Positions 21,951-42,327 of a stretch of 64,000 bases of DNA are shown one piece after another; position 1 is the stretch's first letter, and each line of letters begins with the position of its first letter. The translations under genes were made by a program, and so were the position numbers. Location: positions 672,001-736,000 of the forward strand of contig CAXXWS020000002.1 of NCBI GenBank assembly GCA_963665325.3, given 5' to 3'. The notes below the pieces were generated by a model that saw nothing but the letters and a program-made list of their open reading frames with translations, did no database searches and had not been told where the DNA came from. This stretch comes from Alphaproteobacteria bacterium. GTDB taxonomy: Bacteria > Pseudomonadota > Alphaproteobacteria > Bin95.

Positions 21951-22634
21951 TCAGACCGGGCGGTCGCCCTCCAGAATGATGCGCCAGAGCGTCCGGGAGT
22001 GCTGCCGGTCGTAGTCTCCGTGGGCGCGGTGCATCGCGGCCCGGTTGTCGCAGACGACCATGTCGCCCTGCCGCCAGCTGTGGCGGTAGACGATGCCGTC
22101 CTGGATCGTGCGGTCCAGCAGGTCCTGCAGCAGCGTCTGCGAGGCTTCCGGCTTCATGCCCTCGATGCAGCGGGCCTTGGTGATGTGGAAATAGAGCGCT
22201 CTTGAGCCGTGCTCGGGATGGGTGCGGACCATGGGGTGGATCGCAGGGATATCGTATTTTTCCCAATCCTCGGCGCGCGTGTCGGTCAGGTGGCGGTCGA
22301 GCCCGTTGACCGTCTTCAGCCCTGCAAGGCGCTCCCGCTCGTCCGCATCGAGGCCCGCATAGGCCGCGCGCATGTTCGCGAAACTGGTGTCGCCGCCCTC
22401 GGGCGGGATTTCCACACCGTAGAGGATCGTCGCCTTGGGCGGGCGCTCGCGGTTGGTGTGGTCCGTGTGCCAGCGTTCGGCCGGGCGCTGTCCGTTGCGG
22501 TGCCAGATGCGCCCGATCATCGGTTGGTCCGGCATGTTGTGCTGGCTGTAATGCTGCGCCATCGGTTCGCCGAGCTGCGAGCAGGCCGCCAGATACTCGT
22601 CAGGCGTGAAGTTCTGTTCGCGGAACACCAGCAC
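21951..22634 (-). pseudogene. TauD/TfdA dioxygenase, 3' segment (227 codons) cut off from its 5' end by an integrative element
   Basis: Begins mid-motif (VLVFREQ); intact WHTD, HPMVRTHP and DNRAAMHR; the matching 5' part is at 39133-39268. Confidence 0.9.
22625..22634 (+). repeat. left att core ACACCAGCAC
   Basis: Identical to 39133-39142. Confidence 0.9.
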
Positions 22635-22754
22635 AACGCACCTGCGGTGCTAAGAGGTTGATAAAGCGTCTGTTTTTCCTCGTGCAATTGCAGGTCAGGG
22701 ACAAAAATGCAAGTGCATTTTCCCCCGCCTGCAACAGAACGCAGGAGGGAATCC

Positions 22755-23876
22755 ATGTCCAATGTCCGCCTCAGCCAGAGCCGGGTCGAGGCCCTTGAGG
22801 CCCGGAGAGCGCCATACGACATCCGCGACCGTGACTTGAGGGGCTTCGGCGTCCGGGTCCTGCCCTCTGGCGCCAGGCGATATTTCGTTCACAGCCAGCA
22901 TGAGGGACGACGTTTCTGGAAGACTGTCGGAGACGCCGGCAGCATCGGTCTTGACGAGGCCCGCCGACGGGCGACGGAACTGCTCGCCGCTTTCCGGCGC
23001 GACGAGCCGCCTGCCCTGCCGGAGGAGAGGCTGTTCGAGGCCGTTGCCGAGGAGGTCTTCGACCGCTACGGGCGGCACTGGAAGCCCCGGACCATGAAGG
23101 TCAACCGGAACTATCTGCGCAACCAGATCCTGCCCTGGTTCCGGGGACGGGATATCGCCGACATCGACCGGCAGGATGTGCAAAAGTGGTTCGCCTCGTT
23201 GCGCGCCACGCCCGTGGCGGCCGACCGGTCCGCGCCGGTGCTGTCGGTCATCATGCGCCAGGCCGAGCTTTACGGCTGGCGCCCGGAAGGCAGCAATCCC
23301 TGTGTGGGCATCCGCCGCTACCGGCGCAAGGGACGCGAGCGCTTCCTGTCCGGGCAGGAACTTCTCCGTCTCGGGACCGTGCTCGACAGCCACGAGGCTG
23401 CGCATCCGCGGGAGGTATCGTTCGTCCGCCTGCTGCTGCTGACCGGCTGCCGGGTCAGCGAGATTGCGACCCTCCAGTGGTCCGACTACCGGGAGGGCCG
23501 CCTGTTCCTGCGCGACGGCAAGGCCGGCCCCCGGACTGTGTGGCTGTCCTCGCCCGCGCGCGCCGTGCTGGCCCGGCTTCCCCGGAAGGGAAAGTGGGTT
23601 TTCCCCTCGCCGCAGCGGCGCGGGCCGCTCTCCGTGACGGTCTTCGAGACCTTCTGGCGCCGGGTCCGGCAGGAGGCGGGCATTGCCGACGTGCGGCTTC
23701 ACGATTGCCGCCACACATATGCCAGCATCGCCGTCATGCGGGGCGAAACCGTCACCACGACGGCGCGGCTGCTCGGCCACAACGACGCGGCGACGACGCT
23801 GAAATACGCCCATCTGTCCGACCGTTCGGCGCGCGAGGCTGCCGACGCCCTCGCCGCCATTCTCGGGGAGGTCTGA
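22755..23876 (+). CDS. tyrosine recombinase/integrase 1 with arm-type DNA-binding N-terminal domain
   Basis: RBS GGAGGG; RDRDLRGFGVRVLPSG N-domain; catalytic TGCR, DGK, HDCRH, LLGH and TTLKY. Confidence 0.93.
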   Translation: MSNVRLSQSRVEALEARRAPYDIRDRDLRGFGVRVLPSGARRYFVHSQHEGRRFWKTVGDAGSIGLDEARRRATELLAAFRRDEPPALPEERLFEAVAEEVFDRYGRHWKPRTMKVNRNYLRNQILPWFRGRDIADIDRQDVQKWFASLRATPVAADRSAPVLSVIMRQAELYGWRPEGSNPCVGIRRYRRKGRERFLSGQELLRLGTVLDSHEAAHPREVSFVRLLLLTGCRVSEIATLQWSDYREGRLFLRDGKAGPRTVWLSSPARAVLARLPRKGKWVFPSPQRRGPLSVTVFETFWRRVRQEAGIADVRLHDCRHTYASIAVMRGETVTTTARLLGHNDAATTLKYAHLSDRSAREAADALAAILGEV

Positions 23877-23879
23877 TCC

Positions 23880-25043
23880 ATGCCGGTACGGAAAAGGCTC
23901 ACCGACGCCGGCATTGCGCGGCTCCACCCCGAGACGCGCGAATACACGGTATGGGATACCCGGGTCGCCGGTCTCGGGGTCAGGGTCCGCCCCACCGGCA
24001 GCCGGACCTTCATCTACAGCTTCAAGACGGCCGGCGGCTTGCGGAAATTGTCCTTCGGCCCGGCGGTGCTCGGTAGGGTCGAGGAGGTGCGCCGCGCCTG
24101 TCTTGCGGCGGCGGCCGAGGCTGCAACGGCGGCTGAGACGGACGAGCGGCCCCGCGAGGCAGTGCCGCTCTTCCGGGATTTCGTTGCCGGCCCCTGGAAG
24201 GCGGACCGCTTCGACCGCTGCAAGCCTTCCACGCAGAGGAGCTTCGCCGGCATCCTGAAACGCCAGCTGCTTCCGGCCTTCGGGTCCCGCCGTCTCGACC
24301 GGATTACCCGCAGAATGGCGGTCCGCTGGTTCGAGACCTACAGCAGGACCGCTCCGGGAACGGCCAATGTCGCTCTCGACCTGCTGGGGCAGATATTCCG
24401 CCATGCGCGCGCCTGCGGCCATATTGCCGCCGATCCTGTCAGAGGCATCGCTCGCAATCCCGTGAGGAATCACACCCGGTTCCTGTCCCGCGAGGAAATC
24501 GCCCGGCTTCACCGGGTCCTTGACCGACACGCCGAAGGCTCCGCGTCGCAGGCGCAGCAGGCCGACATCGTCCGCCTGCTGCTGCTCACCGGCTGCCGCA
24601 AGGGCGAAATCCTGCGCCTGCGCCGGGACGAGGTGAAGGAGGATCGGCTGGAACTCGCCGACAGCAAGACCGGGCCGAGAACCGTTCTGCTGAATGCCGG
24701 CGCACGGAAAATCCTGGCGCGCCGCATGGCGCAGGGAGAAGGTCCCTGGGTCTTTCCTTCCGCCGGCGATCCGTCCCGGCATCAGTTCTACGGGCTTCGG
24801 CTCTGGTATGTCGTGAGACGCGAGGCGGGTATTGAGGATGTGCGCCTTCACGACCTTCGCCATACGGTAGCCAGCCAGGCCGTGCTGAACGGCGTGCCCT
24901 TGACCGTCACCGCCCGCCTCCTCGGTCACAGCGACGTGCGCATGACCCTGCGCTACGCGCATGTCGGAGACCGCGAGGTCGAAGCAGCGGCCGAGCGGGT
25001 CGGAGCGGCAATGGCCGCCGCGATGGCGCCTTGCCGCGACTGA
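23880..25043 (+). CDS. tyrosine recombinase/integrase 2 (paralog of integrase 1)
   Basis: WDTRVAGLGVRVRPTG N-domain; TGCR, DSK, HDLRH, LLGH and MTLRY; starts 3 nt after integrase 1. Confidence 0.93.
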   Translation: MPVRKRLTDAGIARLHPETREYTVWDTRVAGLGVRVRPTGSRTFIYSFKTAGGLRKLSFGPAVLGRVEEVRRACLAAAAEAATAAETDERPREAVPLFRDFVAGPWKADRFDRCKPSTQRSFAGILKRQLLPAFGSRRLDRITRRMAVRWFETYSRTAPGTANVALDLLGQIFRHARACGHIAADPVRGIARNPVRNHTRFLSREEIARLHRVLDRHAEGSASQAQQADIVRLLLLTGCRKGEILRLRRDEVKEDRLELADSKTGPRTVLLNAGARKILARRMAQGEGPWVFPSAGDPSRHQFYGLRLWYVVRREAGIEDVRLHDLRHTVASQAVLNGVPLTVTARLLGHSDVRMTLRYAHVGDREVEAAAERVGAAMAAAMAPCRD

Positions 25044-25369
25044 AGGGATGCGTCGCTTTCACCACCGCGCCGCGATTTCCACGCCGACAGTGTGCTGTGG
25101 CGCTTGCGTGCCGCTTTCCCTGCGGGTCGCCTTGAGCCCGAACGACAGGTTGGGCGCGGTTGCGGCTTCCGGTGTCAGCCGCCAGCCGAGGCTGTAGTCG
25201 CGCCCACCGGTGGCGAGGCCGAGGCCCATATGCGGTGCCGGTACAGCGACCGTCGAACGCCGGGAAGCCCCAGGCCGCCTTCATCGACCAGCGCGCCGAC
25301 GCCTCGCTGCTGCCCTCGCGATCCTCCAGCGGCTCCGCCGTGGACAGCGCATCCAGGCCGCCGCCCGCC

Positions 25370-25545
25370 CGCCCCGATCCTGAATCGGGCGCACATCCAG
25401 CCCGAAGCGGTCGGCGAACTTCTGCCGGCTCGGCTTCGTGCGCTTACGCAGCGCGACGATCCGCTAGGCGACAGGGTCGTCCACGATCCGGCAGGGCAAC
25501 GCCGTCTCGCCCCGCAGTGGGGTAGCACCTCGCCTGGCGCCGCAC
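25370..25545 (-). pseudogene. decayed XRE/HigA-like HTH antitoxin
   Basis: Manual translation GETALPCRIVDDPVA*RIVALRKRTKPSRQKFADRFGLDVRPIQD, with an in-frame TAG at 25464-25466 and frame breaks on both sides; boundaries approximate. Confidence 0.6.
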
Positions 25546-25689
25546 TGCTGAAATCGGGCAACCCATTGAGAAACCGCCGATATACAACTTCCCCTTTTTT
25601 GCTTTGGACCCTTCTCAATCGGTCCTTTTGGGTCCAAACTGTCGTCGAAGCGAGATGGGAAACTCTGTCAAGACGGCGGGAGCCAGAAA

Positions 25690-28600
25690 ATGAACATCCG
25701 TACCTTGTTCGGCATATCGGCGGCACTACTCGGTATGCTCCCGATTCAACTGTCACATGCCTATACAGTTCCCGATTCGTTAGTAAACACAGTCAGATAC
25801 TATTACGAATCCAATAAAAACAAATCTCCGACATATGGATGCAATTGGTTTCGCGTACTTATCGCATATGGAGACAAGGAAGCCGGGCATTGGCCTGGCG
25901 GAGGCAGTTGCAGTCTGGTGCCATATACCGTCGCAGAAGCAAAAGCATCTGAATACCAATGGAATGGCTGGACACCCATTCGCGAATCTCTGGAAAAGAT
26001 TGAAGCTGCCCCCCCCCCCCCCGCAGCCTAAGCCCCAACAGGCACAATCTAATACTCCCGTGCCAGAGTTTATTATCACTGGCGGCGGGCAAACAATAAC
26101 AGAAGGTGGATCGGTTACCTTCTATATAAACAAATCAAACACTGCTACTATGACTGGATCGATCACACTCAATATCACCATCACTGGCGGCGATGACTTT
26201 GTACCCAGTAATACCCTAACCGTAATTGTACCCAGTTCCGGTTCCAAATCTTTTACCGTTAATACAGTTCAGGATAGTGTGGATGACCCGGATTCTTCTG
26301 TTGTTACCGTTGCATTGGCAACTGGAACGGGATACACTATCAACAGCCTTTTGAATTCAGTCACATTTACGGTTCAGGATGATGATGCAGTAACGACCCC
26401 CATTCCTCCAAAAACCGTGAACCCCAAGAATTATTGTAACTTCAATACACATTCATATGCTGAAGAAAACATTTGTGTTTATTTAACACTCTCATCCAAT
26501 TCCAGTTCGATAATAGACGAAGGTGATGCGATAACCGCGACAGTATATACTGATAGGAATGTAAAGGATTTCAATGGACTCACTATCAATATCGCTATTG
26601 CCGACAACAACGGATATATAAACGGTGTAGTCCCGAGCTCTATCCATATCCCCCGCTTCAAAGGCAAGGCAACATTTACACTGAATACAGAAGATGATAA
26701 TATAGACGAAAACGATGGTGTGATTAAGGTCAGTATTTCTCCGGGAGCGGGTTATTTATTGACAGATGACGGACGCAATGAATTTGAAATTAATGTGCGT
26801 GACAACGATATAGGCCCGCCTCCGGTAATTACCATCAGCAGTCTTGGCGATATTACGGAAGGCAATCAGGCCAGATTCAATGTCGTGGCAACGCCCACTC
26901 CAAAAGGTCCTGTTGTGGTATATTACACGGTATCTCGCACAGGAGACTTTGACAATTATGGCGGCAAAGTCTATCTGAAAGCTATTACCAAATACGATAC
27001 ATTATTGTCCTTGGATACCGTAAACGACGCTGCAGATGAGCCCGACGGTTCCATCACTGTCACACTACAGGAAGACGATGAAGACGGATACGACTTGTCG
27101 GCCTATTATACATTATCCTCAACTAAAGCGGCTACCGTTGCAGTCAAAGATGATGATCTTTCAGAAGCAAACAAACTGGTTGAGAATGCCTGCGTTTCCG
27201 ACGCCATGAAAAACCGTGTAAAATACTACATCTCTGAAGTCCGCAGAGGCGCCGCCCATGTGTTGAAATGGAAAAATGCATTAAACATCCTCAGCGGTAA
27301 TGATAGCACCAAGGCGTTGGAAGATTTGCGAATCAGTGCCAAAGCCCAAAAAGATAGAGGCTGGTCGAGATGGGATGAAATTCATAAAGCGGTTGTCTGT
27401 ATGCAAGGTGCTTCTGGTGAACCCGTACTTGTGTTGGCAAGCGATGGCAATATTGTTACCGAAGGCAATACCGCTTCGGTAACGGTGAGTGGGTCACTGG
27501 CTTTCAGTTCCCCAACCGATATAGCGCTGTATATTAGCGGTGACTTCGTGACTGACAGTCCTCTGACATGTCAATTCCCCGCCGGTCAAACTGCACATGC
27601 ATGCGCAATAGTCACGAACGCAGCTAATGGCACCATAGATGCCGATGGCACTTTCAAAGTGGAGTTGAAGCCTGGAGCAGGATATATACTCGGCGATACA
27701 AATATCGTCAACATACCAGTTGCCGATGCCGACACCCCTACAATCACCATAAAGCAGATACCTGGCTCGGACGTTGTCACGGAAGGTGGGACGGCGAGCT
27801 TCAATTTTTATACTACCGATACCAGTAAGGCATCTTCTGTGAAGGTGAAGATTGTGGATGGCGCAAACTTTGTCTCCAGCGGCCAGGCTGGAACCAGAAC
27901 GGTGAATGTAGGTCCCGGCGGCGACGGAGGAGTTGGCAGTATAAGTGACCCATCAGTTTTAACCGTAGTTACCGACAATGATAGCGTTCCTGAATCCCCG
28001 AGCAGGATTACCGCTACTATTCAGCAAGGTTCTGGTTACAGGGTAGGCGCGGTTTATACTACCCGTGTCGCAGTCCAGGATGACTCAGATGGTGGCAGCC
28101 GCCATAACGTGAATAGCTATTATCTTGAAGGCTGCGATGAGGATCACCAGAACTGTAACCTGGTGGAATCTGAGACATTCACTTCGGCGGAATGTTTTAC
28201 AGCTCAATCAGTCCGAAAAAACAAATATGTGTTGCCGAGTGCCACTACCATTGAAAACAGCGCATATACTCTGAATCAGATCCGCGGCGCAGGCAGCGCC
28301 GTCGACTACGGCAAGCGTCCTACAGGCAGTCCGCACTTCCCCGCAAACAGAACGAAGTATGCGGCGGAGTTCGTTTATCCCGACGGCAAGGACTACTTCT
28401 CGGAGGACGAAGAAGTAACCGTGCGGTTTTATGTGGCAAACTATAATCCCAACTACCCGAATAGAGATGACAACTATGAGCAACCCACAGAAGGCTATCT
28501 ATGCTCGAAGGATAAAAACGGGACTATCAAGAAGGATTCCCGCTGGGTAAACGATTGGAAATGGGGTCCGGGTGGAGTCCAGGCTCCCGCGAGCCAACCT

Positions 28601-31600
28601 ACCGACTTTGCATCCACATATGAAAGCGGCCCGGATGGGGTCATAAAAGTCCATCCTGTTCCCAAGGACACGTTGATAGATTTCACCGGCGGGTACGGTG
28701 TGCCCATGAACCAGAACCATATAAAATTTCTCGTCACCGGAACCAGCGGCGTTGTTCGCCCTGTTGGTCTTCACGACTTGCACTTCAGTCCCGGCGATCT
28801 ATACAAGGATTACAAGTTTGTTGTAGGCGCCAACTGCCGTAGAGACGGTACGCTACCGCCTCAGGATCGCATAACAAACTTCAATAATAACTATGATGAC
28901 GGAAATAAATACTTCCGTCATGGCAGATGGGATTATACAGGCGACAATACCTTCAGAGACCCTGTAGGGGTGTATATCAGCGATCAGAGGAACTATTCAT
29001 GCGAAACAGGCGAAGCGTACGGCACTTCATGTAGCGGCAATTCCGGTTATGGAACTCCTATCTATTGCATGAAGCCTGATGACCAAGGACAAGTCACTCT
29101 AAGCAGCTTTGGCGTTTCAGGTAATGGCGGTTCCTGGGCTGGGAACAATCTGAAAGCGAAAATCAGGCCCAAGGCGGCCGGTGAAGATGCTTTTGTTGTC
29201 GAGGGATATGTCAAGAGGATCACAGAAGGCCATCCACTGACGTATTTTATTACGACCCATGATGGCCAGGAGCCCAAGCAGGGGGGAACAATTCATCTGA
29301 AGGCAACTGCTGTTGCCGGCGGAGCGCCGTTTGAGAACGATCAGAAAACCAAGGTTGTTGACATTCCAATAACCATTGGTAATGGCTGGTTTAGCCGCGC
29401 GGCTCCATATAACGGAGGTTTTATGTTTCAGGATTTCCTTACGGATGATGACAGTAAGAATGAAGGCGACTCTATTGTCAGGCTTGAAGTGGCCGAAGGT
29501 AACGAGTTCCCAATAAGATTTGCGAATGGTGAAGGTTACTTTGAATATACGGTGCTCGATAATGAAGCCGTCACCCTTAATTCGACATTGACCAACAACG
29601 GTATTTCCGAAACCAGCGGAACGGCGACACTGACCGTTAAGCTGCCGGAAGGAACTGTTGATGGCGATGATGCAGATATGATAGTGGATATTCTTCCGGC
29701 ACCCTATACATATTTCCACAATCATATCGACTGGACAGATCCCAGTGGTAATGGCGACAAGAGGCAAACGGCCACAATAGAAGCGACGGGTTGCGCGAGT
29801 GCTGTTCCCGCAACTGAAGCGGCTCCATATTTCAGATGTGTAGTATCCGCCTCCACCGCGGCGCAGTCGCTAACCTTTACATTCAGGGCACTGCCGCAGG
29901 GTGATGAATCGGATGACCGGAATCCAGGTCACACATATGATTTGGGCTTCCATGTAGGGCATTACCAGGAAGCGCAAAGCCTGCAACCGCAGTATGAGAT
30001 AACGGGCACAAGAGACGAATACAAGACGCTGGACGGTGTACTGTCGGTAGCAGGTGACGGAACAGACTTTACTGGGGCCAATGCAATCAAGGTACAGTCG
30101 GTTCCCGGTATTTTCGGCAACACTGGCATTGATAGCATCGTAATGGGCGCTTTCAAAGGCAACTATGGCGATGGCCAAATACCTTCCGATGCAACGCCGC
30201 TTGCCAATATAACGTTCTCGGAACCCGCTTCGAATGATGAAAGCCTCTTGAACAATGGCGATACGGTATATATCGCTTTCAAGAGAACATCGTCTAATCC
30301 GGAACAGTCTAAAGTGGTATCTACGACCTTCGATGTAGCTTTCAATCATGGGACAGCGATACCGGGCAAGGATTTCAGGGTATATTCATACGATCCCCGA
30401 AAATATTGCAAGGGTAGCGCCAGTTTCACGACCAACGCTCAAGGCCGGGTGATTGCCCAATGCGATGGTACATGGAGCACGGATACCAGAGACTGGCATT
30501 CATATGATTATGGTAGAGGCGTGAGCAACAGCATAGGCGATAGGGTTACGGTGGGAAGGTCTCTCAATGAGTGGGTTGTGGGTTTCAAACTGGTGCCCAT
30601 GAGGGATAATCTGGATGAAACTGCTGAAACTGTGATCGGGAGGTTTTTCAGAAAATCTATATCGTCTGCTAAAGGTGTATATCACTCACATTATACAAAG
30701 CTGCAAGGCGAAGTAAATGCAACTCTCGAAAATGCAGGTGCGGGTACCGTCCAAAACATAAGTAATGTGCAAGTAACTATACCTGATGTCACAGCACCAG
30801 AAGGCACACCGACAAAGTTTACCATGACGGTAAACTTCCCAAGTAATCAAAATGGCTGCCTTACCAGTAAACTGGATACGGATGCGCTTTGGGCATATCC
30901 TACCTTTTTGCAACCTGCTGTTGCTGGAAAGGCGCATGTTGGCAAACTGGTAAATCAGGGAGATTTTCTGATTGGTAATACTGCTACCGATAATGGACTA
31001 CAGTCGAATTCACACAGGTTTGCAGATACACGTTTCAAAATCTGTAGCACCAATACAAAGAAGGCCATTACCAGAGACTTTTACATATACGCACATTCTG
31101 ACGGGATAAATGATAATGGCGAAACGGCTAAATTGAAATTACAGGTGCCAAGCTATACTTCCGGTGGTAAGAAGTACGACAATAAAGTGACGGTAACGAA
31201 CGGAACATTGACCATTACCAATGATGGCCCGCTTCCTAAGGAGTGGATTGCGAGGTTCGGTCATGTCGTAGCCAGTGAAACGGTGGAAGCGGTGTCGGAC
31301 AGGGTAAGGGCGGACAGGAAGCCCGGTAGCAGCAGTCTTTCATTCGGAGCAATGCCTGGCGAAGAAGTGGCTATCACACAGGGTTCGGAAATAGTCGAGG
31401 GCTCTTCTTTCCATATAACCAGTGCCGAAAGGGATGGAGCCACATTGTCCGCATGGGGCAAGGTTTCCACATCCTCATTCGACGCCAGTGTAACCGACAT
31501 GGATCTGGATAGTGATAATACCCACGCAATGTTGGGTATTGATTATGCCGCAGGTTCATGGCTGGTCGGTGTTGGAGTCGGCTTGCATAATGGTGAGGGA

Positions 31601-32305
31601 GGAGCCGAAATGCTTGGTGAGGCTCTGGTATATGACATCGAAAGCAAGGTATCGAATGTCTTTCCATACGGGTCGATTACGGTGGGCAGCACAAAGGTGT
31701 GGTCGACGATCGGTTACGGTACCGGTGAAATCAGTATAAGACAGGAGTTGGGCAGTGGTGAAAAGAGTGACCTGGGAACTGCCGATACGGAATGGTGGAT
31801 GGCGGCTACAGGGCTCCGCTCGACGATGTTCGATGCCAAACATTACAGTATGGCAATTGTTGGCGATGTATTCTGGACCTCAATCGAATCTGGCGAGGGT
31901 GCTGGATATAGGGCGGCAGAGGCGGAGTCACACCGTGAAAGATTGGGTCTGGAAGTGGATATGGACTTTGACAGATTGTCATTTACCCCGTCGATATTTG
32001 CCAGAGCCGATGGCGGAGATGTTGGTAGTGGGACGGGAATCGAGTTAAATGCTTCGGTAAGCTGGGAAACATTGGAGGGATTGTTTCTTACAGGCTCGGG
32101 CAGCCATGTATTGGATTCGGATAATGAGTTCAATGCATACGCTATCGGCGCTGAATGGCAAACCGGATTCGGCCGTCCGTCGGTTTCCTGGAATCGGGAA
32201 AACTACAGCCTTGGATGGTCCAGGGAGTTCAGCGGTGGTGTGTTGGGCATAAACACTATACCCGATGAGCAAGCCATGAGATTGGACCTTTCTTTGAGGT
32301 TCTGA
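25690..32305 (+). CDS. giant secreted Calx-beta-like repeat / autotransporter-like surface protein, frameshifted at a C14 tract (2204 aa if C13)
   Basis: 25690-26031 has RBS GGGGAG and a signal peptide. The downstream frame has repeated ITEG...F...DDxxDE..DG...V.L..G.GY.....V.DDD modules and a C-terminal beta-barrel-like region ending LDLSLRF. Visibly AT-richer than the host. Confidence 0.8.
26009..26022 (+). repeat. poly-C(14) homopolymer, candidate slipped-strand ON/OFF switch
   Basis: C14 gives a stop at 26029-26031; C13 or C16 joins the two frames. Confidence 0.8.
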
Positions 32306-32680
32306 TATCCCTTTCAGAAGATGGGGGCTTCGGGCAAAGGATCTCGGGTATAGGTAAGGACGACAGCCGACCGCGGGCCGGTGAAGCGGAGCCCGGTCGA
32401 AGCGTTCCTTTCCTGCCTGTCCGATTGTGTTGACGCTTTGGAGTGAAGCCCTCGAAGCTATTGGGGGGAATGGCAACCAGTATGGCGGAGTGCGATAGGG
32501 CGAAAATGGCATGACGGATGCGAAGCGGGATGTCGACGAAGACGGTTTTCTGGAGAAGAACCGGGAATAGTCTTATTGGCATGAGGGGGAGTAGGTCCGT
32601 CGACCGGTCGGAAATCGGGCTTGACGCCAATCACCAGTGCCTATAGCTGGCAAGTACCGAAGTGGCAGAGAGGGGACGCT

Positions 32681-33397
32681 GTGCCAAAGCCTATATCCAC
32701 CCCGACCGCGAGGCAGGGTATCCAGATCGGCGACAGGTTGATGGTCGAATGCGAAGACGGGCTTTTCTACAAGTCGGTCGTTATCGGGTTGTCGGAAAAG
32801 AGCATAAACATCCTGTTCGACAGTGGGGGCGAACAAGCCGAAATAAGCCGGCAGGCGGCTACGGATCCTGTCAGGGGGATATGTGCGCTCGATCAGCGGG
32901 AATGGCTCGATGCAGGCCTTTCCGGCGAGAAAGCAGACCAATTGTTGCAAGCGGAGCATTCAGGGCAAGGGGATTTCCCCGGAATGGAGAGCGCAGCGCC
33001 GCAAGGCCGTCCGCGCCGCCGGCGGCGGACGCGCGAGGAAATCGCGGCAAACAAGGCAAACGCTCCCGCCAGCTTGGAGCATAATCGACCGTCCGGCGTC
33101 GTGGACGGCATGGGGGGCCAGCTAAAGGGCTACCGAAACAAGCTGGCGGCTCTCCCGACACTGACGCTCGAGAGCATGATGGCCGTTTTCAGGAAGGCGA
33201 ACCCGGACGACCTGACAGAAGCGCAAAGCGCTATCTATGGCGAGTTCCACGATATGCGCCAGCTTGAAGAAGCGTTCCCCGATAAACTGCCGTCGCTGGA
33301 TCCGAACGATTATGACGCCTGCCGGGCAATGAATCAGGAAAGCACGACCGATGATCTGCTGGCACCCACAATGTATGAGAGAACCAATGCGGTATAG
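32681..33397 (+). CDS. hypothetical protein with Tudor/SH3-like N-terminus and Arg-rich patch
   Basis: GTG start after AGAGGGG; IQIGDRLMVECEDGLFYKSVVI...ILFDSG; PRRRRRTREEI; followed by a terminator. Domain call is by eye only. Confidence 0.5.
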   Translation: MPKPISTPTARQGIQIGDRLMVECEDGLFYKSVVIGLSEKSINILFDSGGEQAEISRQAATDPVRGICALDQREWLDAGLSGEKADQLLQAEHSGQGDFPGMESAAPQGRPRRRRRTREEIAANKANAPASLEHNRPSGVVDGMGGQLKGYRNKLAALPTLTLESMMAVFRKANPDDLTEAQSAIYGEFHDMRQLEEAFPDKLPSLDPNDYDACRAMNQESTTDDLLAPTMYERTNAV

Positions 33398-33422
33398 CCT
33401 CCAAAGGGCATATCGTTCCAAG

Positions 33423-33446
33423 GGGAGGCTTCGGCTCTCCCTTTTT
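33423..33446 (+). terminator. Rho-independent terminator
   Basis: GGGAGGC-TTCG-GCTCTCCC stem (cUUCGg loop, one bulge) followed by TTTTT, 25 nt after the stop at 33397. Confidence 0.7.
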
Positions 33447-33637
33447 GGTTCAGCAAGAAGGGCCGAAAGGCTTTAAGACGCTCAGACGCATATTCTGGCT
33501 CAACTTCAACAGCACGGACAAAAAGCCGGGCACCGCTCTTCCTGCCGGTCTCCCGGAGGCGGCCGGCTCCAGGCGGAGCGCGAGGTGGGCGCGTCGGGTG
33601 TGTGAACCACGCGCCGAAGGGCAGGCTCGGCACTCCA

Positions 33638-34948
33638 TCAAAAGGTCTTCGAAAAACCGATTGTGGCACCCTGATTGCGCCAGGCGTTAATCGGGATACT
33701 GGAGCGGTTCCATTCGTGGAAATATCCGATATACGGAGCGAATCCTTGGAGTTGCAGTGCGCGGTGAAGCAAGTTCACGGAGAGGCGCGTCTGCCGGTCC
33801 GAGCGCGTCTTTCCGAAGAGAGGGGTTGCGCCGTCGTAGCGCCGCCAGTGCATGGCCATTCGGGGCGAGATGGAGAGGCCGCCTGCGAAGGCATGGGAGA
33901 CCCCGAAAGCGAAGCCGCCAAGCCGGCTGCCGTGACGGTCCTCGCGGGCCCCGAGATGTTCGAGGTCGAGTTCGACCCGGAACGTCGTCCGGGAGTCGAG
34001 TGCGTAGTCGAGGCCGGGCCGCAGGGTAACGGTCCAGCCGTTCAGCCCGGGATGGTCCCGATGGCCGCGGCGCTCCGCGTTGAGCGCGGCGTCGAGCCGC
34101 AAGGCCGGCGACAGGCGCACGCGGCCGCGCACCCAGGGGCCGATCCCGTCGCTGTAGCGCTTTCCGCCCAGCCATCGCCGGCTGAGGCGAAGGCCGCCGG
34201 ATGCGCTCCCCCGATCAAACAGCCGCGCGGCCCCGATATCGCTTTGGACCGAGATATCGTTCCAGTCGGATTTCTCGTAGAGCTTTGCCGCCGCCGAAGC
34301 CGCCAGCACGCCGCGCCAGTCGTCGGCAAGGACGGACGAATATTGTGCGCCCGTGCCGAGCAGCAAGCCCGTTCCGGATGCTTCGCGGGCATCCTCGTCG
34401 AGACGGAACGGCACGCCGCCGATACGTATTTCGTCGTCATCCGTGCGCTTTGCCGGATTGCTCTCCGGCAGAATCGCCGCGGAGATCGAGGCCGACCATC
34501 GCTTGCGGGCATCGATCCGGTCGAGCCACGCCTCCACCGCCTTCTCGACGGAAGATGGCAGTTCATCCGCGAGCGAAGCCTCGAAATGGAACCGGGCTTT
34601 TCCGTCGCGTCCGAGCAGGCCGTAGACGCGGGCCAGTTCGAGCCTGGCCCGCGTCAGCTCCGGGCGGAGAGCCAGGACCGCCTCGAAACGCCGGGCGGCG
34701 TCGCGCAGACGCCCGAGCCGGGCTTCTGCGCTGCCCAGCAGGAACAGCCGCTCAATATCTTCTTCCTCGTCGCCGGGTCGTGCCTGCTCCAGGAATGCAT
34801 GCGCGTCGCGGAAACGGCCGGCATCGAACAGAAGCCGACCGAACTGCATGTCGTCAGGCACGTTCCGAACATCGGCCGTTTGGCCGAGCGCAGTCGCGGC
34901 GAACAGCAGCGCCGCCGCGACCGCAGCCGGGAGTGCGCCCGCGCGCAC
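33638..34948 (-). CDS. surface lipoprotein assembly modulator (SLAM / type XI secretion translocon): TPR + beta-barrel
   Basis: Signal peptide; TPR-like segment (RLFLLG...RPELTRARLELARVY...ARFHFE); barrel ending RSSIPINAWRNQGATIGFSKTF; adjacent TbpB-like cargo. Confidence 0.85.
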   Translation of the reverse strand: MRAGALPAAVAAALLFAATALGQTADVRNVPDDMQFGRLLFDAGRFRDAHAFLEQARPGDEEEDIERLFLLGSAEARLGRLRDAARRFEAVLALRPELTRARLELARVYGLLGRDGKARFHFEASLADELPSSVEKAVEAWLDRIDARKRWSASISAAILPESNPAKRTDDDEIRIGGVPFRLDEDAREASGTGLLLGTGAQYSSVLADDWRGVLAASAAAKLYEKSDWNDISVQSDIGAARLFDRGSASGGLRLSRRWLGGKRYSDGIGPWVRGRVRLSPALRLDAALNAERRGHRDHPGLNGWTVTLRPGLDYALDSRTTFRVELDLEHLGAREDRHGSRLGGFAFGVSHAFAGGLSISPRMAMHWRRYDGATPLFGKTRSDRQTRLSVNLLHRALQLQGFAPYIGYFHEWNRSSIPINAWRNQGATIGFSKTF

Positions 34949-34960
34949 CTGCGGGCGGCG

Positions 34961-36787
34961 CTACTGGCGGGCACCGCCGAACCAGCCGTGAAGCAGCTTG
35001 CCGTCCGCTCCCGTCGCCTGCATGACGCCGGCGGCCTCGGCGACGGCTGGCCCGTAGAAGGCGCCCGAGACGGTGCCGTCATAACCCAGACCCGACAGGC
35101 TGCCCGACAGGGCGTTCCCCTCGATGGCGCCGTTGAAGATCGTGAACTCGCCGGCAGTCGCCTGGTACGATTCACGCTGGAAGTAGCCCGGGCTATGCTC
35201 CAGATCCGAAATGCGCCCGGAGACGCTGCCCGCCGCGAAGTCCGCCGACAGGGTCAGCGATCCGCTATAGCCCTCGGCGTAGTTGGAGGAGGCGCGCCCC
35301 TCTCCCGGGGCCGGTGCGAAGACATAGGCGGCCGCCTTGCCGGCATAGGTCGCCGTTCCCGTCTGCGGCATGCTGGCGGAGGCGGTCCTGGTTCCGTGGA
35401 CAACCGATTCCCAACTAAAGGAGTCTGCCGAACTCGTGGTCCCATCGGGGTAAACTCCGACCAGCCAGTCCTTCACGTTGTAGTGCTGTCCTTGCGGCAC
35501 CCGGTCCGCGTAGTGCGGGCGCCGGAACCAGGCCAACAAGGTGCCGGTTCTTTTCTGATAAACCTCGGCCCTGCTTCCGGTGCCGATGTCATCGACGCTC
35601 ATGGACACGGTCTGTAGCGTCCCGTCAACCAGATAGGAGATCGTGTATCCGCCGGCATTATCCGCTTCGATGGCCGTGATCCGGTTGTTCGCGTCCTGAG
35701 CCACAATGCGGGGCGATGCCGAGTTGTAGCCGAGGCGGTTTACGCCGGCCTGCAACGGCTCATTGTCGGTGTGTTCGCCGACGACATCCGCACGTGTGCC
35801 GCCGAGATATCCTATCACTGCCCAATCGTCGTCGTCGCCGCCGGCGCGGGCCGCAGTGAGAGACGCGCCGAACTCGCGCGCGTTCGGCCCGTAGAACTGG
35901 CCCGATACATCGCCGGCGAACCCGCGCACGCTGTCGCCCAGAGGCACATTCGCATCGTCGTCCACACCCGTCAGGGTGGCCGTAAACCCATCGTTGGCGA
36001 TCTCGCCATCGGAGATTTCGAGCCGCGTGGTCGAAGCGAGGTTCCGGTAATCGGACTCGCCCGGCCCTCGTATCCTCAGACGGAAAATGCGTCCGTCCAA
36101 AGTCGCATCCGCAAAGTCAGCCGTCAGCACCAGATTGCCTTGAACCCGGGAACGGGCGACCGAGGTGGAGACGGAGTCGAGAGTATTGTCATAGGCGTCG
36201 GCGTGCATCCGCCCGATGTAGGTCGCGGTTCCCGTCGGCATGTCCTCCGGACCGGTCGGGATGCCGTAAGTCCAGACAAGCCTTGCCCCGTCCGGATGAT
36301 GGGAACCGAGAACATCGAAATAATCGAATTCCGACCCGATGCCATAGTTCTCACCGTCGAACGATCCGGCAGAGCTCCAGAACCAGTACTGTCGGCCGTC
36401 TACGTCCTTGGTATAGGAGGTTGTGTCCCGGGTTGCGAAGTCGCCCTTCGAGAAGTGCACGGTCGTTTCGGTGCCGTCGATGACATAGGTCACATGGAAT
36501 CCGTTGTCGCCGTCGCTCGCCACGGAGGAGATCGAGAAACGGTCGCCCACGGAAGCCCTGTCGGCACTGTAGTCGAACTCGAGCGCCTTCGAGACGGCCC
36601 CGAACATTTCGGTCGGATCCGGAACGAGCTCGGCCAGGGTCGGCGCCGGAGGCGTGGCGGGCGGCAGCGGCATCGGGCCGCCTGTCTTGCCGGCAGTGCT
36701 TCCTCCCCCGCCTCCACAGCCGGCAAGGGCGAGCACGGCAACGAGCGGAAGGGCAATCGAGGTCTTGCGCAGGACGGTAAAAGTCAT
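34961..36787 (-). CDS. two-lobed transferrin-binding-protein-B-like surface lipoprotein (T11SS cargo)
   Basis: Lipobox LAGC + GGGGGS linker; two copies of MPxGTATYxG...ADF..G.I...G.FYGP...E..G. Confidence 0.85.
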   Translation of the reverse strand: MTFTVLRKTSIALPLVAVLALAGCGGGGGSTAGKTGGPMPLPPATPPAPTLAELVPDPTEMFGAVSKALEFDYSADRASVGDRFSISSVASDGDNGFHVTYVIDGTETTVHFSKGDFATRDTTSYTKDVDGRQYWFWSSAGSFDGENYGIGSEFDYFDVLGSHHPDGARLVWTYGIPTGPEDMPTGTATYIGRMHADAYDNTLDSVSTSVARSRVQGNLVLTADFADATLDGRIFRLRIRGPGESDYRNLASTTRLEISDGEIANDGFTATLTGVDDDANVPLGDSVRGFAGDVSGQFYGPNAREFGASLTAARAGGDDDDWAVIGYLGGTRADVVGEHTDNEPLQAGVNRLGYNSASPRIVAQDANNRITAIEADNAGGYTISYLVDGTLQTVSMSVDDIGTGSRAEVYQKRTGTLLAWFRRPHYADRVPQGQHYNVKDWLVGVYPDGTTSSADSFSWESVVHGTRTASASMPQTGTATYAGKAAAYVFAPAPGEGRASSNYAEGYSGSLTLSADFAAGSVSGRISDLEHSPGYFQRESYQATAGEFTIFNGAIEGNALSGSLSGLGYDGTVSGAFYGPAVAEAAGVMQATGADGKLLHGWFGGARQ

Positions 36788-37148
36788 CGCGAAAGCTCCT
36801 GTTCGGGATTGAGAGAAAGGCGGCTGACAAACGGTATCCGATCGGCCTGACGCAGGATGTGCAGGCCGGGCCGGGGGCGCAGCGGGATCGATAGGGTGGA
36901 GTGAGTGCGGTTCCGCCGAACGGCGCGTGGCGGCAAAAAACGAACTGCGGTTGGACCGGTCGCAGTGAGGCCGGGCGTCCGAATGCCGACAACTGCGCGG
37001 CAATATGTCCGTTCCGCCCAAGGCGAACGAAATACGGGACGCCGCCGTCTGCTACGGCGGCAAAGGGCTTCGGAAGGGAGGAGGTGCCGGTCTCGGCGAC
37101 CGGGAGTGCGGGACTGCCCTAGCGGGCTACAACATGCGCTGACATCAA

Positions 37149-37274
37149 GAGGCGCGAGGCGCGAGGCGCGAGGCGCGAGGCGCGAGGCGCGAGGCGCGAG
37201 GCGCGAGGCGCGAGGCGCGAGGCGCGAGGCGCGAGGCGCGAGGCGCGAGGCGCGAGGCGCGAGGCGCGAGGCGC
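37149..37274 (+). repeat. perfect tandem repeat (GAGGCGC)x18
   Basis: Counted directly: 126 bp with no mismatches. Confidence 0.95.
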
Positions 37275-37287
37275 GATTCTACCCGCT

Positions 37288-37554
37288 ATGCCAACCGACA
37301 GCATCAAACCCTGTCGTCCCCTCTCTGACTTCGACTGGAATATAGTCAGCCTCTCCGGGCCGGCGCAAGCTCGAAGTGCCGTTAGCTTTGGGTTCGGGTT
37401 CACCGCCGCGGACGATGGCGGGCGCGAGGTGTTCGTCCATTACCGCGCCCTGTCGCGCGCCGGCCTGGAGATACTGGAACCCGGAGAGCGCGTGAGCTTC
37501 CGGATCGAAGAGGTCCCGCGCGGCCTTCAGGCCAGCGACATCGCGCCGGTCTGA
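37288..37554 (+). pseudogene. cold-shock-domain gene with missing/replaced N-terminus
   Basis: GFGFTAADDGGREVFVHYRAL...LEPGERVSF...RGLQA matches CspA RNP1/RNP2 and C-terminus, but the GxVKWFN first strand is absent. Confidence 0.6.
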
Positions 37555-37575
37555 CGCCGCCGGCGCCATTGTCCT

Positions 37576-38025
37576 TCAGAGCAGCTCGCCCTGCGGGCGG
37601 GGCTCCACGCCGGATGTCCCGGACTTCTCCGGCTCCTCCGGCGCCAGGGCCGCGGCGACCCGCTTCGCAGCCGCTTCGCCGACCGCAGGCGCCAGGACCG
37701 CGCACAACTCCGCCGCCCGGCCCGAAGCGGCAAGCTCGCCCGCCCAGGCGGCAAACAGCACGGCAAGCCGCTCATGCAGCCCGGAGCGCAAAATGCCGCG
37801 ACCGCTCTTCCCGGACAGAAAGGGCCGCAGATGGCGCACGGCCTCCAGCAGGCCGCGTTCGCCCTCGAGCGTCCGGCCCCCCGCCTCCGCCAGCGCCGCG
37901 TCCACAAGATAGCGCGAGATCGATTTCCCCTGCCCCCGCGCCCGGTCTTCCGCCAGCGCCCATTCCTCGTCCGTCGCCGAGATCGAAAGCCGCACAAGCG
38001 CCGAACCGGGCAGCGGGCGGCTCAT
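37576..38025 (-). CDS. ribbon-helix-helix / MobC-like protein
   Basis: VRLSISATDEEWALAEDRARGQGKSISRYLVDAAL pattern; start overlaps the upstream gene stop. Confidence 0.65.
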   Translation of the reverse strand: MSRPLPGSALVRLSISATDEEWALAEDRARGQGKSISRYLVDAALAEAGGRTLEGERGLLEAVRHLRPFLSGKSGRGILRSGLHERLAVLFAAWAGELAASGRAAELCAVLAPAVGEAAAKRVAAALAPEEPEKSGTSGVEPRPQGELL

Positions 38026-38318
38026 CTCCCGCCGTCCTTCGGCGCCGCTTCTTCCGGGCTGCCTTCATCGGCCACGGCGCCGCGTATCATGTCCGCGAAA
38101 CCGATCAGCCGGCGGACCCCGTCATGCAGTTCGGCCCGTTCCGCCTCCGACAGGCCGGGAGCCTCTCCCTTGCCGCCGCCGTCCCCCAGCGCCCGCTCCA
38201 GCACGAAGGACGAAACCGACACTCCCGCCGCTGCCGCCCGCTCACCGAGCGTATCCCGCTCCCCCGGGCTGCAATACACGCTGCGGGGACGTTTCGCAGT
38301 CTCGGCTCTTCTCCGCAT
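38022..38318 (-). CDS. ribbon-helix-helix / MobC-like protein
   Basis: RPRSVYCSPGERDTLGERAAAAGVSVSSFVLERAL pattern; start at MRRRAET. Confidence 0.65.
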   Translation of the reverse strand: MRRRAETAKRPRSVYCSPGERDTLGERAAAAGVSVSSFVLERALGDGGGKGEAPGLSEAERAELHDGVRRLIGFADMIRGAVADEGSPEEAAPKDGGR

Positions 38319-38423
38319 GCCGCAGTCCTCCAGTATACGCTCCGGGCTCTGCAACGGCTTCCCTTGCGGCGTCCTCACTGCGCCGACACCCTCCGGCCCG
38401 GACAACCGGCCGCATCCCGCACA

Positions 38424-38642
38424 TTGTGGCGTAACAGCACAAGATTGTCGACCTTATGGCGCAACGACACAAGCCCGGCGCCTCCATGCACGACGATGCA
38501 GAGACTTTATGGTGTTGCGCCATAAGAGCGCCGGTCTTGTGGCGTGGCAACACAAGACCCGCTCCGTTTATGGCGCAATGACACAAGACATCCTTATGGC
38601 GCAGCACCATAAGGCGGCAGGCTTGTGGCGCAACTACACAAG
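38424..38642. repeat. array of seven 20-bp quasi-palindromic repeats TTRTGG-N8-CAYAAG
   Basis: Copies start at 38424, 38454, 38507, 38537, 38568, 38594 and 38623 (e.g. ttatggcgcaacgacacaag). Confidence 0.85.
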
Positions 38643-38736
38643 CATCGCCGCGCCCGCCCGGTCAAGGGCATTGACGGACCCTTTCGGGCATGAAACACAG
38701 GATCGATATGACTGTTCCCCGGTGGAACACAGGAGC

Positions 38737-38773
38737 ACCACATCAATGTGGTATCCATGTTCACATGGATACC
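38737..38773. repeat. two overlapping perfect inverted repeats
   Basis: ACCACAT-CA-ATGTGGT (38737-38752) and GGTATCCATGT-TC-ACATGGATACC (38750-38773). Confidence 0.8.
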
Positions 38774-39132
38774 CATGGTCCCGTGCATCATCATCCGCGA
38801 CTCCACAAAGCCGCCACATGGAACACGACGTTCAGGGCGGAAGTCGATGCAAATCCTCGACATGAGGATTGGGTGCTCCGGAGATACGGCGCGACTGCCT
38901 CCCGGTCCCACACTCAGCGCCCGCAGGCGCCACGCCCGGTGCTCCTGTTGTATGTCATAAAATCCCCAATCTGCAACTGCAATGCGATTCCTACCACGAT
39001 CTCATACAGCATAATCGTGACACAAGGCGCTTGCATCGACCCCCGTAATGCCTTATTGTGGCTCACCTTATGAGGAAGGCAGCGCTTCAATCCACGGGTG
39101 TCCCTATAGTCCTGAACTGAGGTTTTATTGGC

Positions 39133-39142
39133 ACACCAGCAC
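39133..39142 (+). repeat. right att core ACACCAGCAC
   Basis: Identical to 22625-22634. Confidence 0.9.
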
Positions 39143-41295: not shown

Positions 41296-42246
41296 CTAGA
41301 GCCCCAGCTCTTCCATGGCGGCCTTCGCCAGGGCGTAGTTCTCCTTGAGCTGCTTGTCCCAGACCTTCCAGCCGGCGACGCTCTCCTCCGGGTCGAGCCC
41401 GGAAGACCGGAGATAGCCGCCGAAAGTCTTGTGCTTCATGGCCTTGGCAAGCGCATCGGAGAGCTTCTGGATGATCGGCTCGGGCGTACCGGCCTTCACC
41501 GCATAGCCGCGTGTGGTTGAGGTCTTTATCGGGTAGCCGAGTTCGAACGTCGTCGGCACATCCGGGTAGCCGCCGAGGCGCTTGTCGTTCATCACCGCTA
41601 GCGGGCGGAAGGTCCCGTCCTGCACCTGCGTCAGCGCTTCGGAGACATTCGGCAAAGTGGCATCGATGGCCCCGGACATGAGCGCTTGCACCATCTGTGC
41701 GCCGCTGCCGAACGGAACCGCTTTCTGCTTGATGCCGGCCACCTTCGCGAACTGCAGCAGGCCGATATGCTCCGTCGAGCCAATCTCGCCGACGCCCCAG
41801 TTGAGGGCACCCTCCTTGGAGGCGGCAATCAGCTCCCCCAGTGTCTTGTATGGGCTGTCCTTGTGGACGGTGATGAAGGTCGGGTCGTCCATGGCGCGGG
41901 CGACGCCGACCATGTCGTCGATCTCCATGCCGCCCTTGCCGCGCGCGATGGTGTAGAGATGGGTCTGCGTGAGCGCCATCAGCGTGTAGCCATCGGCAGC
42001 CTTGCCGTTCACATAGGCCTGGGCCGCCGCCCCGCCGCCGCCGCGTTTCGCGACCACGACCATGTCGGTGTCGAGATTACGGCGCGAGCGGATCATCATC
42101 ATCCGCGCCGTGGTATCGGTGCCGCCGCCATATTTGGCGTGGATGACAACTTCGATGGTCTTGTCGCCCGGGAAGTCGTCGGCTGCGGTTGCCGGCAGCG
42201 CCAACATGCCCGCGAGCGCGACTCCGGTCAGAACGGACTTCAGCAT
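41296..42246 (-). CDS. tctC: tripartite tricarboxylate transporter substrate-binding protein (Bug/TctC)
   Basis: Signal peptide; GGGTDTTAR, ADGYT, VPFGSG and PDVPT. Confidence 0.9.
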   Translation of the reverse strand: MLKSVLTGVALAGMLALPATAADDFPGDKTIEVVIHAKYGGGTDTTARMMMIRSRRNLDTDMVVVAKRGGGGAAAQAYVNGKAADGYTLMALTQTHLYTIARGKGGMEIDDMVGVARAMDDPTFITVHKDSPYKTLGELIAASKEGALNWGVGEIGSTEHIGLLQFAKVAGIKQKAVPFGSGAQMVQALMSGAIDATLPNVSEALTQVQDGTFRPLAVMNDKRLGGYPDVPTTFELGYPIKTSTTRGYAVKAGTPEPIIQKLSDALAKAMKHKTFGGYLRSSGLDPEESVAGWKVWDKQLKENYALAKAAMEELGL

Positions 42247-42327
42247 CGGTAACTCTCCTCGTGCCGTCGAAATGCCGGCCCCCCCCCTGCACGGCCGGTC
42301 GCTATGGATGGCGGGTTCGGTCTTCGG

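Follow-up and report, generated by a model that had tools for sequence, protein, structure and literature searches.

The stretch of DNA analyzed here (the window) comprises 64,000 nucleotides of a contig from an uncultured alphaproteobacterium and carries, on the plus strand at 25690-32305, a 6.6-kb gene whose reading frame is broken near its 5' end at a homopolymer. Sequence inspection and a homopolymer scan located an uninterrupted run of 14 cytosines (C14) at 26009-26022 on the plus strand, corresponding to nucleotides 320 to 333 of the gene, where it is read as the (CCC)n proline codons of a polyproline linker and constitutes the frameshift site. The first open reading frame (ORF A) begins at the ATG at 25690, with the sequence GGGAG 7 nt upstream of it, runs through C14, and encodes 113 amino acids before ending, in the C14 state, at a TAA at 26029-26031 (plus strand; sequence, ORF list, and translation), which lies 7 nt past the tract, two codons beyond it. 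The remainder of the gene is read in a long frame, represented by an ORF at 25835-32305 of 2,156 amino acids (P0002), which is open to 32305 and corresponds to the ORF A frame +1 (25690 mod 3 = 1; 25835 mod 3 = 2). As the span from 25690 to 32305 is 6,616 nt, one base fewer in the tract gives 6,615 nt, or 2,204 codons and a stop, and in the translation of the long frame the in-frame junction from the tract onward reads EAAPPPPQPKPQQ. The downstream frame contains no internal stop, and 97% of it can be aligned with two homologs. An earlier note, made from the sequence alone, had described a signal-peptide ORF that stops 7 nt after C14, a 2,204-amino-acid fusion upon loss of one C, and a downstream frame of approximately 6.3 kb with no other lesion; the sequence and ORF list, the frame arithmetic, and the stop-free, 97% aligned frame, respectively, bear out all three statements, the signal peptide being recognized by eye. 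Frame arithmetic, the translations, and a fused homolog (P0004) together indicate that a change in repeat number would put the gene into either a full-length or a truncated frame.

Under an independent-base composition model, 0.014 C or G runs of at least 14 nt are expected in 64 kb. The only other homopolymer of at least 8 nt in the window is a C9 run at 42279-42287, and across 80 related loci (1,249,236 bases) no homopolymer of at least 9 nt was found, the longest being three C/G8 and two A/T8 runs. Using a perfect-repeat scan (unit of 1 to 9 nt, at least four copies, at least 14 nt), exactly two perfect simple sequence repeats (SSRs) were detected in the 64 kb, C14 and a (GAGGCGC)18 array, both inside the genomic island described below; a perfect-repeat scan of 1.25 Mb of related loci returned only six trinucleotide repeats of five copies. 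Codon usage does not explain the homopolymer, as CCC accounts for only 31 of the 94 proline codons downstream of the tract and the three other proline runs of the gene are mixed (CCTCCA, CCGCCTCCG, and CCGCCT); four successive CCC codons are atypical for this gene.

The C9 run is intergenic and lies between a TctC-like gene (41296-42246, minus strand) and an acyl-CoA dehydrogenase gene (42328-43566, minus strand). Approximately 52 nt upstream of the ATG of the giant gene, where the GC content drops, 25604-25637 holds an inverted repeat (TTGGACCC ... GGGTCCAA) whose 8-bp arms are 18 nt apart; it may be an operator or what is left of a terminator. A promoter and terminator scan returned sites no more numerous than those in shuffled sequences, with none upstream of the giant gene.

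Protein architecture

The protein begins with a predicted Sec-type signal peptide of 24 amino acids (25690-25761, plus strand; MNIR...SHA, followed by YTVPD), identified in the translation by a basic n-region, a 15-residue hydrophobic core, and small residues at -3 and -1, and kept in P0004 and in a second homolog, P0095. It is followed by a small Cys-containing module (25762-26008, plus strand; YY..N...GCNWFRVL.AYG...W.GW..I), which makes up the remainder of ORF A up to the tract. This module is 91% identical to P0095 and conserved in P0004 (alignment A1, in which identities are those of whole rows only). It also occurs internally in P0101, P0244 (E value of 7.7e-13), and P0007, the last two of which are Calx-beta proteins, and a second copy is present at approximately residues 450 to 530 of P0002. 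No match to the N-terminal module was found in Pfam, NCBIfam, or PDB sequences, and ORF A showed no significant BLASTP similarity to the long protein.

Beyond the tract, the +1 frame encodes a Pro-rich linker and then Calx-beta-like repeats (26024-28084, plus strand), which were recognized by BLASTP against P0007: residues 70 to 750 of P0002 align with the PF03160 repeats of that protein with 29% identity over 699 amino acids (E value of 2e-54). A search of 5.8 billion proteins with the long protein returned 93 rows, among which only P0003 and P0004 were close; PF03160 was present in 73 of the 93. There was no direct match to PF03160, with no Pfam family assigned to P0002, P0003, or P0004 at an E value of ≤0.01 and no Pfam match for five segments of the window protein at an E value of ≤10, and self-BLAST of the passenger detected no internal repeats at 1e-3. 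On the basis of these alignments the passenger repeats are termed Calx-beta-like and are not filed as members of PF03160.

The following approximately 1,050 amino acids of the passenger (28085-31228, plus strand) have no known fold match and are covered only by P0003 and P0004. Residues 750 to 1798 or so of P0002 gave no Pfam, PDB, or Atlas match and nothing outside the three alleles, and an Atlas search with the central region (28112-29554) gave no usable match. In an identity profile, the most conserved block of the passenger falls at approximately residues 834 to 933 of P0002.

The C-terminal translocator (31229-32305, plus strand), recognized by transitive homology and through the ESM-Atlas, consists of the linker PLPKEWIARFGHVVASETVEAVSDRV, a predicted beta-barrel ending in LDLSLRF, and the stop. 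The PLPKEWIARFGHVVASETVEAVSDRV stretch preceding the barrel is conserved across the family as AWLARFGRTVA.... A beta-signal is a C-terminal motif ending in an aromatic residue, and the ends of the window protein (...RLDLSLRF), of P0003 (the same), and of P0004 (LDLSVRF) all have this form; in the LDLSLRF end of the window protein, hydrophobic residues alternate. An exhaustive search with the last 378 amino acids retrieved 2,794 proteins at an E value of ≤1e-3, 1,934 at ≤1e-10, and 14 at ≤1e-30, and in the closest rows the match is likewise C-terminal (e.g., residues 633 to 998 of 1,000 in P0096 and 667 to 1025 of 1,025 in P0099). One relative, P0102, carries PF03797 (4.5e-14, residues 288 to 387), and the window protein matches its residues 270 to 528 at 3.7e-34. 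A Pfam scan of 21 among 150 listed barrel relatives yielded PF03797 in one (P0102), Calx-beta in four, and a subthreshold OMP_b-brl match in one, while in NCBIfam TIGR01414 (autotrans_barl) exceeded its curated cutoff in 7 of 25 relatives, within the region aligned to the window protein. In the ESM-Atlas, 28 of the 30 nearest clusters were autotransporter beta-domains; scores reached 0.95, with 179 of 256 features shared. The whole protein and its five segments matched nothing in Pfam or NCBIfam, and PDB sequence searches with the barrel, the A2 and A3 profiles, and ORF A returned either nothing or only the Calx-beta domains of Na/Ca exchangers. A custom beta-moment scan, which was not used, broke the barrel into eight ragged segments.

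Taken together, transitive homology and the language-model match point to a divergent autotransporter-type outer-membrane protein. The surface protein claimed in the earlier note thus finds support in the 2,794-protein barrel family, in the PF03797 and TIGR01414 domains of relatives, and in the 28 of 30 Atlas clusters, with no direct match; surface exposure and an adhesive function are predicted for it from these relationships. Its layout resembles that of type Va autotransporters (PF03797/TIGR01414), with a putative signal peptide at the N terminus, a long passenger, a predicted helical linker and barrel (the latter of approximately 280 to 300 amino acids), and a terminal Phe, but unlike them it falls below every curated model and has a Calx-beta-like passenger. 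The usual passenger of a type Va autotransporter is a beta-helix. With 2,794 barrel relatives, Calx-beta-type passengers, and curated models that mostly miss it, the family appears to be large and essentially undescribed. No paper on a Calx-beta autotransporter in symbionts was found in the literature searched, and the match examined for Calx-beta together with autotransporter concerns LapA and describes no such protein.

Homologs and alleles

The two close homologs of the long protein are P0003 (2,067 amino acids, 72% identity to P0002) and P0004 (2,211 amino acids, 68%). P0004 is intact, with an ORF A-like signal peptide, the N-terminal module, and an AAAPPPPPPP linker fused to the long protein; its linker, with seven prolines, reads EAAAPPPPPPPKEEEQP... 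directly into the long protein, in frame. When ORF A was used as the query, one further protein was identified among 10 candidates, the 141-amino-acid P0095, which is 91% identical. P0095 and P0003 each lie on a contig of 5,378,753 bp. P0095 ends in ...EAAPPPPPPPPRNLNLN...CQSLSSRAADKQ and has eight prolines, and its tail is read one base later than the long frame, as seen from CQS against VPE/MPE at the start of P0003; the P0003 record itself starts at MPEF, just past the tract. As judged from these protein ends, the genome encoding P0095 and P0003 is split at the same polyproline run but into the other wrong frame. The window allele has four prolines, with ORF A in the long frame +2, compared with eight prolines and the long frame +1 in P0095 and seven prolines, in frame, in P0004. 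At the protein level three genomes thus display three phases at one site, in alleles that are only 68 to 75% identical. Both split genes retain a flawless downstream frame of more than 2,000 codons. A profile search of genome contigs with the three-allele alignment A2 matched 17 stretches, none of which was confirmed, and tblastn of P0004 against plasmids gave no match.

Base composition is shared across the tract. The GC content at third codon positions (GC3) is 0.453 in ORF A and 0.48 in the long frame, compared with 0.76 to 0.84 in neighbors on the island and 0.87 to 0.88 in core genes; an unassigned island ORF at 32621-33397 is intermediate (0.687). The barrel relatives P0096, P0098, and P0099 likewise carry the module directly behind their signal peptides and then a linker, which is Pro/Glu rich in P0096 and P0099, and in distant barrel relatives the module takes the pattern HV.RW.RVL.AFG ... 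W.RW. Because P0004 is fused, composition is shared, and barrel relatives begin with the module, the split at C14 is interpreted as a break in one ancestral reading frame, and 25690-32305 is read as a single gene for a giant protein, predicted to be 2,204 amino acids long when in frame.

The three alleles P0002, P0003, and P0004 are mosaic (alignment A2), with the closest pair shifting along the protein and blocks ranging from 47 to 91% identity. Over residues 57 to 440 the window allele is 78 to 91% identical to P0003. Over residues 440 to 830 it is 51 to 61% identical to P0003 or P0004, while P0003 and P0004 are 83 to 84% identical to each other in three of four 100-column windows and 60% identical in the other. 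Over residues 1130 to 1230 the window allele is 82% identical to P0004 and P0003 is at 47%. This mosaicism suggests recombination between alleles and would fit an exchanged, diversified surface protein.

Polyproline linkers of 5 to 9 residues, located approximately 100 to 120 residues from the N terminus, are common in distant Calx-beta relatives. In a group of seven proteins that are 84 to 92% identical to one another (P0029, P0038, P0039, P0042, P0043, P0044, and P0046), the N-proximal polyproline runs are 5, 5, 6, 6, 7, 8, and 9 residues long. Judging from these protein records, linkers at this position seem to be functional and fast changing in length.

A candidate phase-variable locus and competing explanations

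We consider it probable, at roughly 60%, that the gene is a working, slippage-driven contingency locus seen in its OFF state. Slipped-strand mispairing at replication would change the length of the C run. Tract lengths of 3n+1 would be in frame and lead to an exported, barrel-anchored surface protein; at C14, translation would end after 113 residues and yield a short exported fragment with no passenger or barrel, while the other wrong frame would give an exported fragment of roughly 140 amino acids. The locus would then be a stochastic, heritable, and reversible ON/OFF switch for one surface protein, the assembly having captured an OFF length. Slippage in this organism, and its reversibility, are proposed by analogy with characterized systems. 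The candidate phase variation put forward in the earlier note is strengthened by the split of P0095 and P0003 at the same site in the other frame and by P0004, which is in frame.

Homopolymer switches on autotransporters are textbook knowledge in Neisseria, Bordetella, and Campylobacter. In Neisseria meningitidis the poly-C tracts of nalP and mspA range from 6 to 15 bp and from 6 to 14 bp, respectively, and only every third length is expressed (PMC3723659). Like the window gene, NalP and MspA (AusI) have a poly-C tract in the 5' coding part, with lengths that bracket C14. They are proteins of a human commensal and pathogen, have serine-protease passengers, and their switching was shown by fragment sizing and immunoblotting, whereas the window gene combines a Calx-beta-like passenger with a tract that forms a polyproline linker approximately 107 codons in, after an N-terminal module, and belongs to an uncultured alphaproteobacterium whose nearest relatives are alphaproteobacterial metagenome-assembled genomes (MAGs) and in which switching is predicted. 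In Bordetella pertussis bapC, a tract in the 5' coding region varied frequently and a second tract is C14 in Tohama I; that paper takes length differences between related genomes as evidence of phase variation (PMC1891110). BapC resembles the window protein as an autotransporter with a 5' coding homopolymer tract but comes from a high-GC respiratory pathogen of which 90 isolates were assayed, and no sequence relation to it surfaced in the searches made with the window protein, whose rows are unnamed. Species that rely on SSRs as switches show an enrichment of them near N termini (PMC3315296). Among the matches listed in a literature search on phase variation in symbionts or uncultured bacteria, none was relevant. 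What is new is the gene family, the organism, and the mobile context; the mechanism itself is known. The switch would be placed in a polyproline linker after a folded module, and in related families linkers of this kind seem to change length rapidly and in frame.

Several points weigh against this interpretation. That the polyproline runs of the homologs are also poly-C is deduced from protein sequence, and the C terminus of the window protein has no Pfam or NCBIfam autotransporter match at an E value of ≤10. The C run may be present for a structural reason, with slippage a side effect, since polyproline linkers of 5 to 9 residues occur at a like position in other Calx-beta proteins. The three frames in three genomes could partly reflect miscalls, and the homolog and window contigs are all three megabase sized (1.34 Mb for the window's), which would fit long-read assembly.

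A miscalled tract length is the main rival to the gene being OFF in this genome, although we regard it as clearly less likely than a true OFF length. The true tract would be in frame, e.g., one base shorter, the gene would be intact here, and the OFF state would be an artifact; such an error would remove the state but not the hypermutable tract. Homopolymer length is hard to call with Illumina, PacBio circular consensus sequencing (CCS), and Oxford Nanopore (ONT) reads (PMC11878640). The flawless 6.3-kb downstream frame also favors a miscall, as does the second genome broken at the same homopolymer-type site, which is what systematic miscalling would give. On the other hand, neighboring genes are covered end to end by Pfam matches (TctA, 2-422 of 423; Ldh_2, 1-331 of 333; SlipAM, 1-288 of 288), so the assembly is not generally indel ridden, and a consensus normally reports the modal length. 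The window contains no other long intragenic homopolymer against which tract-length calling could be calibrated, and a home-made frameshift scan elsewhere in it produced 12 cases, apparently stop-to-stop ORF boundaries in high-GC DNA and uninformative on assembly quality.

Less probable by a wide margin is a fixed pseudogene, i.e., an island-borne gene that was inactivated by a slip at the tract and is decaying with no useful switching back. The gene is foreign (48% GC) and sits on an island that disrupted tauD, and it may therefore be dispensable cargo; two of the three known alleles are out of frame. However, no second lesion is present in the 2,094 downstream codons here or in the 2,067 amino acids of P0003, and the lack of one in both of two independently split alleles makes a dead pseudogene unlikely. 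Both parts of the gene are also conserved (91% for P0001 versus P0095 and 68 to 72% for P0002 versus P0004 and P0003), and a C14 run is physically unstable, so that reversion is expected.

Recoding, by +1 ribosomal frameshifting on CCC-C or by RNA polymerase slippage, would yield full-length protein at a low, fixed level together with the 113-amino-acid product, and we hold it to be marginally less probable again. The long frame is exactly +1 relative to ORF A, and transcriptional slippage reportedly rescues frameshifted genes in other bacteria (PMC1088944 and PMC4256274). The tract contains CCC-C, a classic type of +1-slippery site at which shifting reaches up to 1% in Escherichia coli, and more without m1G37 or EF-P (PMC4519876). 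Against this, the required shift is not conserved, as none is needed in P0004, which is in frame, and one in the opposite direction would be needed in the P0095 genome; the stop lies two codons beyond the tract and is not adjacent to it; the downstream RNA structure is unremarkable (z = -1.56, with 15 of 200 shuffles folding as well); and the slippage survey reportedly concerns A and T runs (PMC1088944). A programmed frameshift conserved in the family was rejected, since the shift required varies from allele to allele and no stimulatory context is present. Recoding would be at most a leak, and a full-length leak through +1 slippage on CCC-C could add a third, low expression state to the proposed ON/OFF switch.

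A two-gene reading, in which ORF A is a small secreted protein and the large protein is independent and starts past the tract, is very improbable: P0003 is recorded as a 2,067-amino-acid protein starting at MPEF past the tract, but the reading was rejected because the intact homolog P0004 is fused, no start in the long frame yields the signal peptide that an autotransporter needs, and composition is alike on both sides of the tract, the ORF A module being moreover a normal part of such passengers.

If the locus is a contingency switch, its setting is an uncultured alphaproteobacterium with MAGs as nearest relatives, outside the usual pathogens. A consequence for annotation is that such genes are recorded as a small "hypothetical" protein and an N-terminally truncated large ORF, as with P0095 and P0003.

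The island carrying the gene

The giant gene lies on a 16.5-kb genomic island (22635-39132) inserted within tauD, which was delimited by blastn against nine MAG loci (L001 to L009; Alphaproteobacteria, Thalassobaculaceae), whose TauD proteins are 82 to 90% identical to the window fragment, and by a junction alignment (A4). The island is flanked by a 10-bp direct repeat, ACACCAGCAC, at 22625-22634 and 39133-39142. From alignment A4 and the translations, tauD is split into 45 5' codons to the right of the island and 227 3' codons to its left. No blastn match of at least 150 nt fell inside 22635-39129 in any of the nine loci, and in eight of them the DNA next to tauD continues at window position 39130 or beyond or at 42328 or beyond, the other (L006) having no match on that side. 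The giant gene has a GC content of 48% (44 to 51%), compared with 61 to 71% around it, and by GC content, with 48% set against 64 to 70%, and its position on the island it is foreign to its genome.

Immediately inside the left end, two tandem tyrosine integrase genes (22707-23876 and 23880-25043, plus strand) match Phage_integrase at 2.7e-21 and 2.1e-20 and PHROG 1 at 6.9e-64 and 6.2e-62, respectively. On the minus strand downstream of the giant gene, a Slam (SlipAM/DUF560) gene at 33638-34948 is located directly downstream of a gene for a TbpB_B_D/FHBP_C-type lipoprotein. The TbpB-like lipoprotein has an LAGC lipobox and a Gly-rich linker and starts at an ATG at 36790 (minus strand), the Slam and TbpB-like genes together spanning 33638-36790. 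Slam with a TbpB-like protein forms a pair for surface-lipoprotein export that is most familiar from Neisseria and its relatives.

The second perfect repeat of the window, a (GAGGCGC) array of 18.3 copies at 37149-37276 found in the perfect-repeat scan, precedes an 88-amino-acid cold-shock-domain (CSD) ORF (37288-37554, plus strand), whose ATG is 12 nt away, and is approximately 360 nt upstream of the TbpB-like ATG at 36790. By analogy, (GAGGCGC)18 may be a second switch. To our knowledge, multi-locus SSR phase variation has so far been tied almost entirely to pathogens and commensals. In Haemophilus influenzae, perfect heptanucleotide arrays of approximately 13 to 24 units in the promoters of the surface-protein genes hmw1A and hmw2A tune expression (PMC8262952). 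The window array resembles them as a heptamer that would be similarly placed, in the divergent region between the CSD gene and the TbpB-like/Slam operon; the repeat unit differs, and the comparison concerns only this second repeat of the island. Because the island holds this repeat in addition to C14, it is possibly a switch cassette that covers several loci and can be transferred. In its full form, that the island is a portable contingency cassette of two surface-protein systems, each with a long hypermutable repeat, which entered a probably nonpathogenic alphaproteobacterium, we regard the idea as doubtful. If it were true, multi-locus SSR phase variation would reach environmental or symbiotic Alphaproteobacteria and be open to horizontal acquisition as one unit. 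According to a recent review, a database bias may underlie the association of multi-locus phase variation with pathogens, and wider surveys are needed (PMC11868660).

An Rfam scan of the island returned nothing. Toward its right end, the island also carries a 149-amino-acid ORF (37576-38025, minus strand) with weak ParD/NikA-like ribbon-helix-helix matches. Near the right end itself, six copies of a partly palindromic 20-nt repeat (TTRTGGCGYAAC..ACAAG) are located at 38424-38642, and these could be recombinase-arm, origin-of-transfer (oriT), or iteron-type sites.

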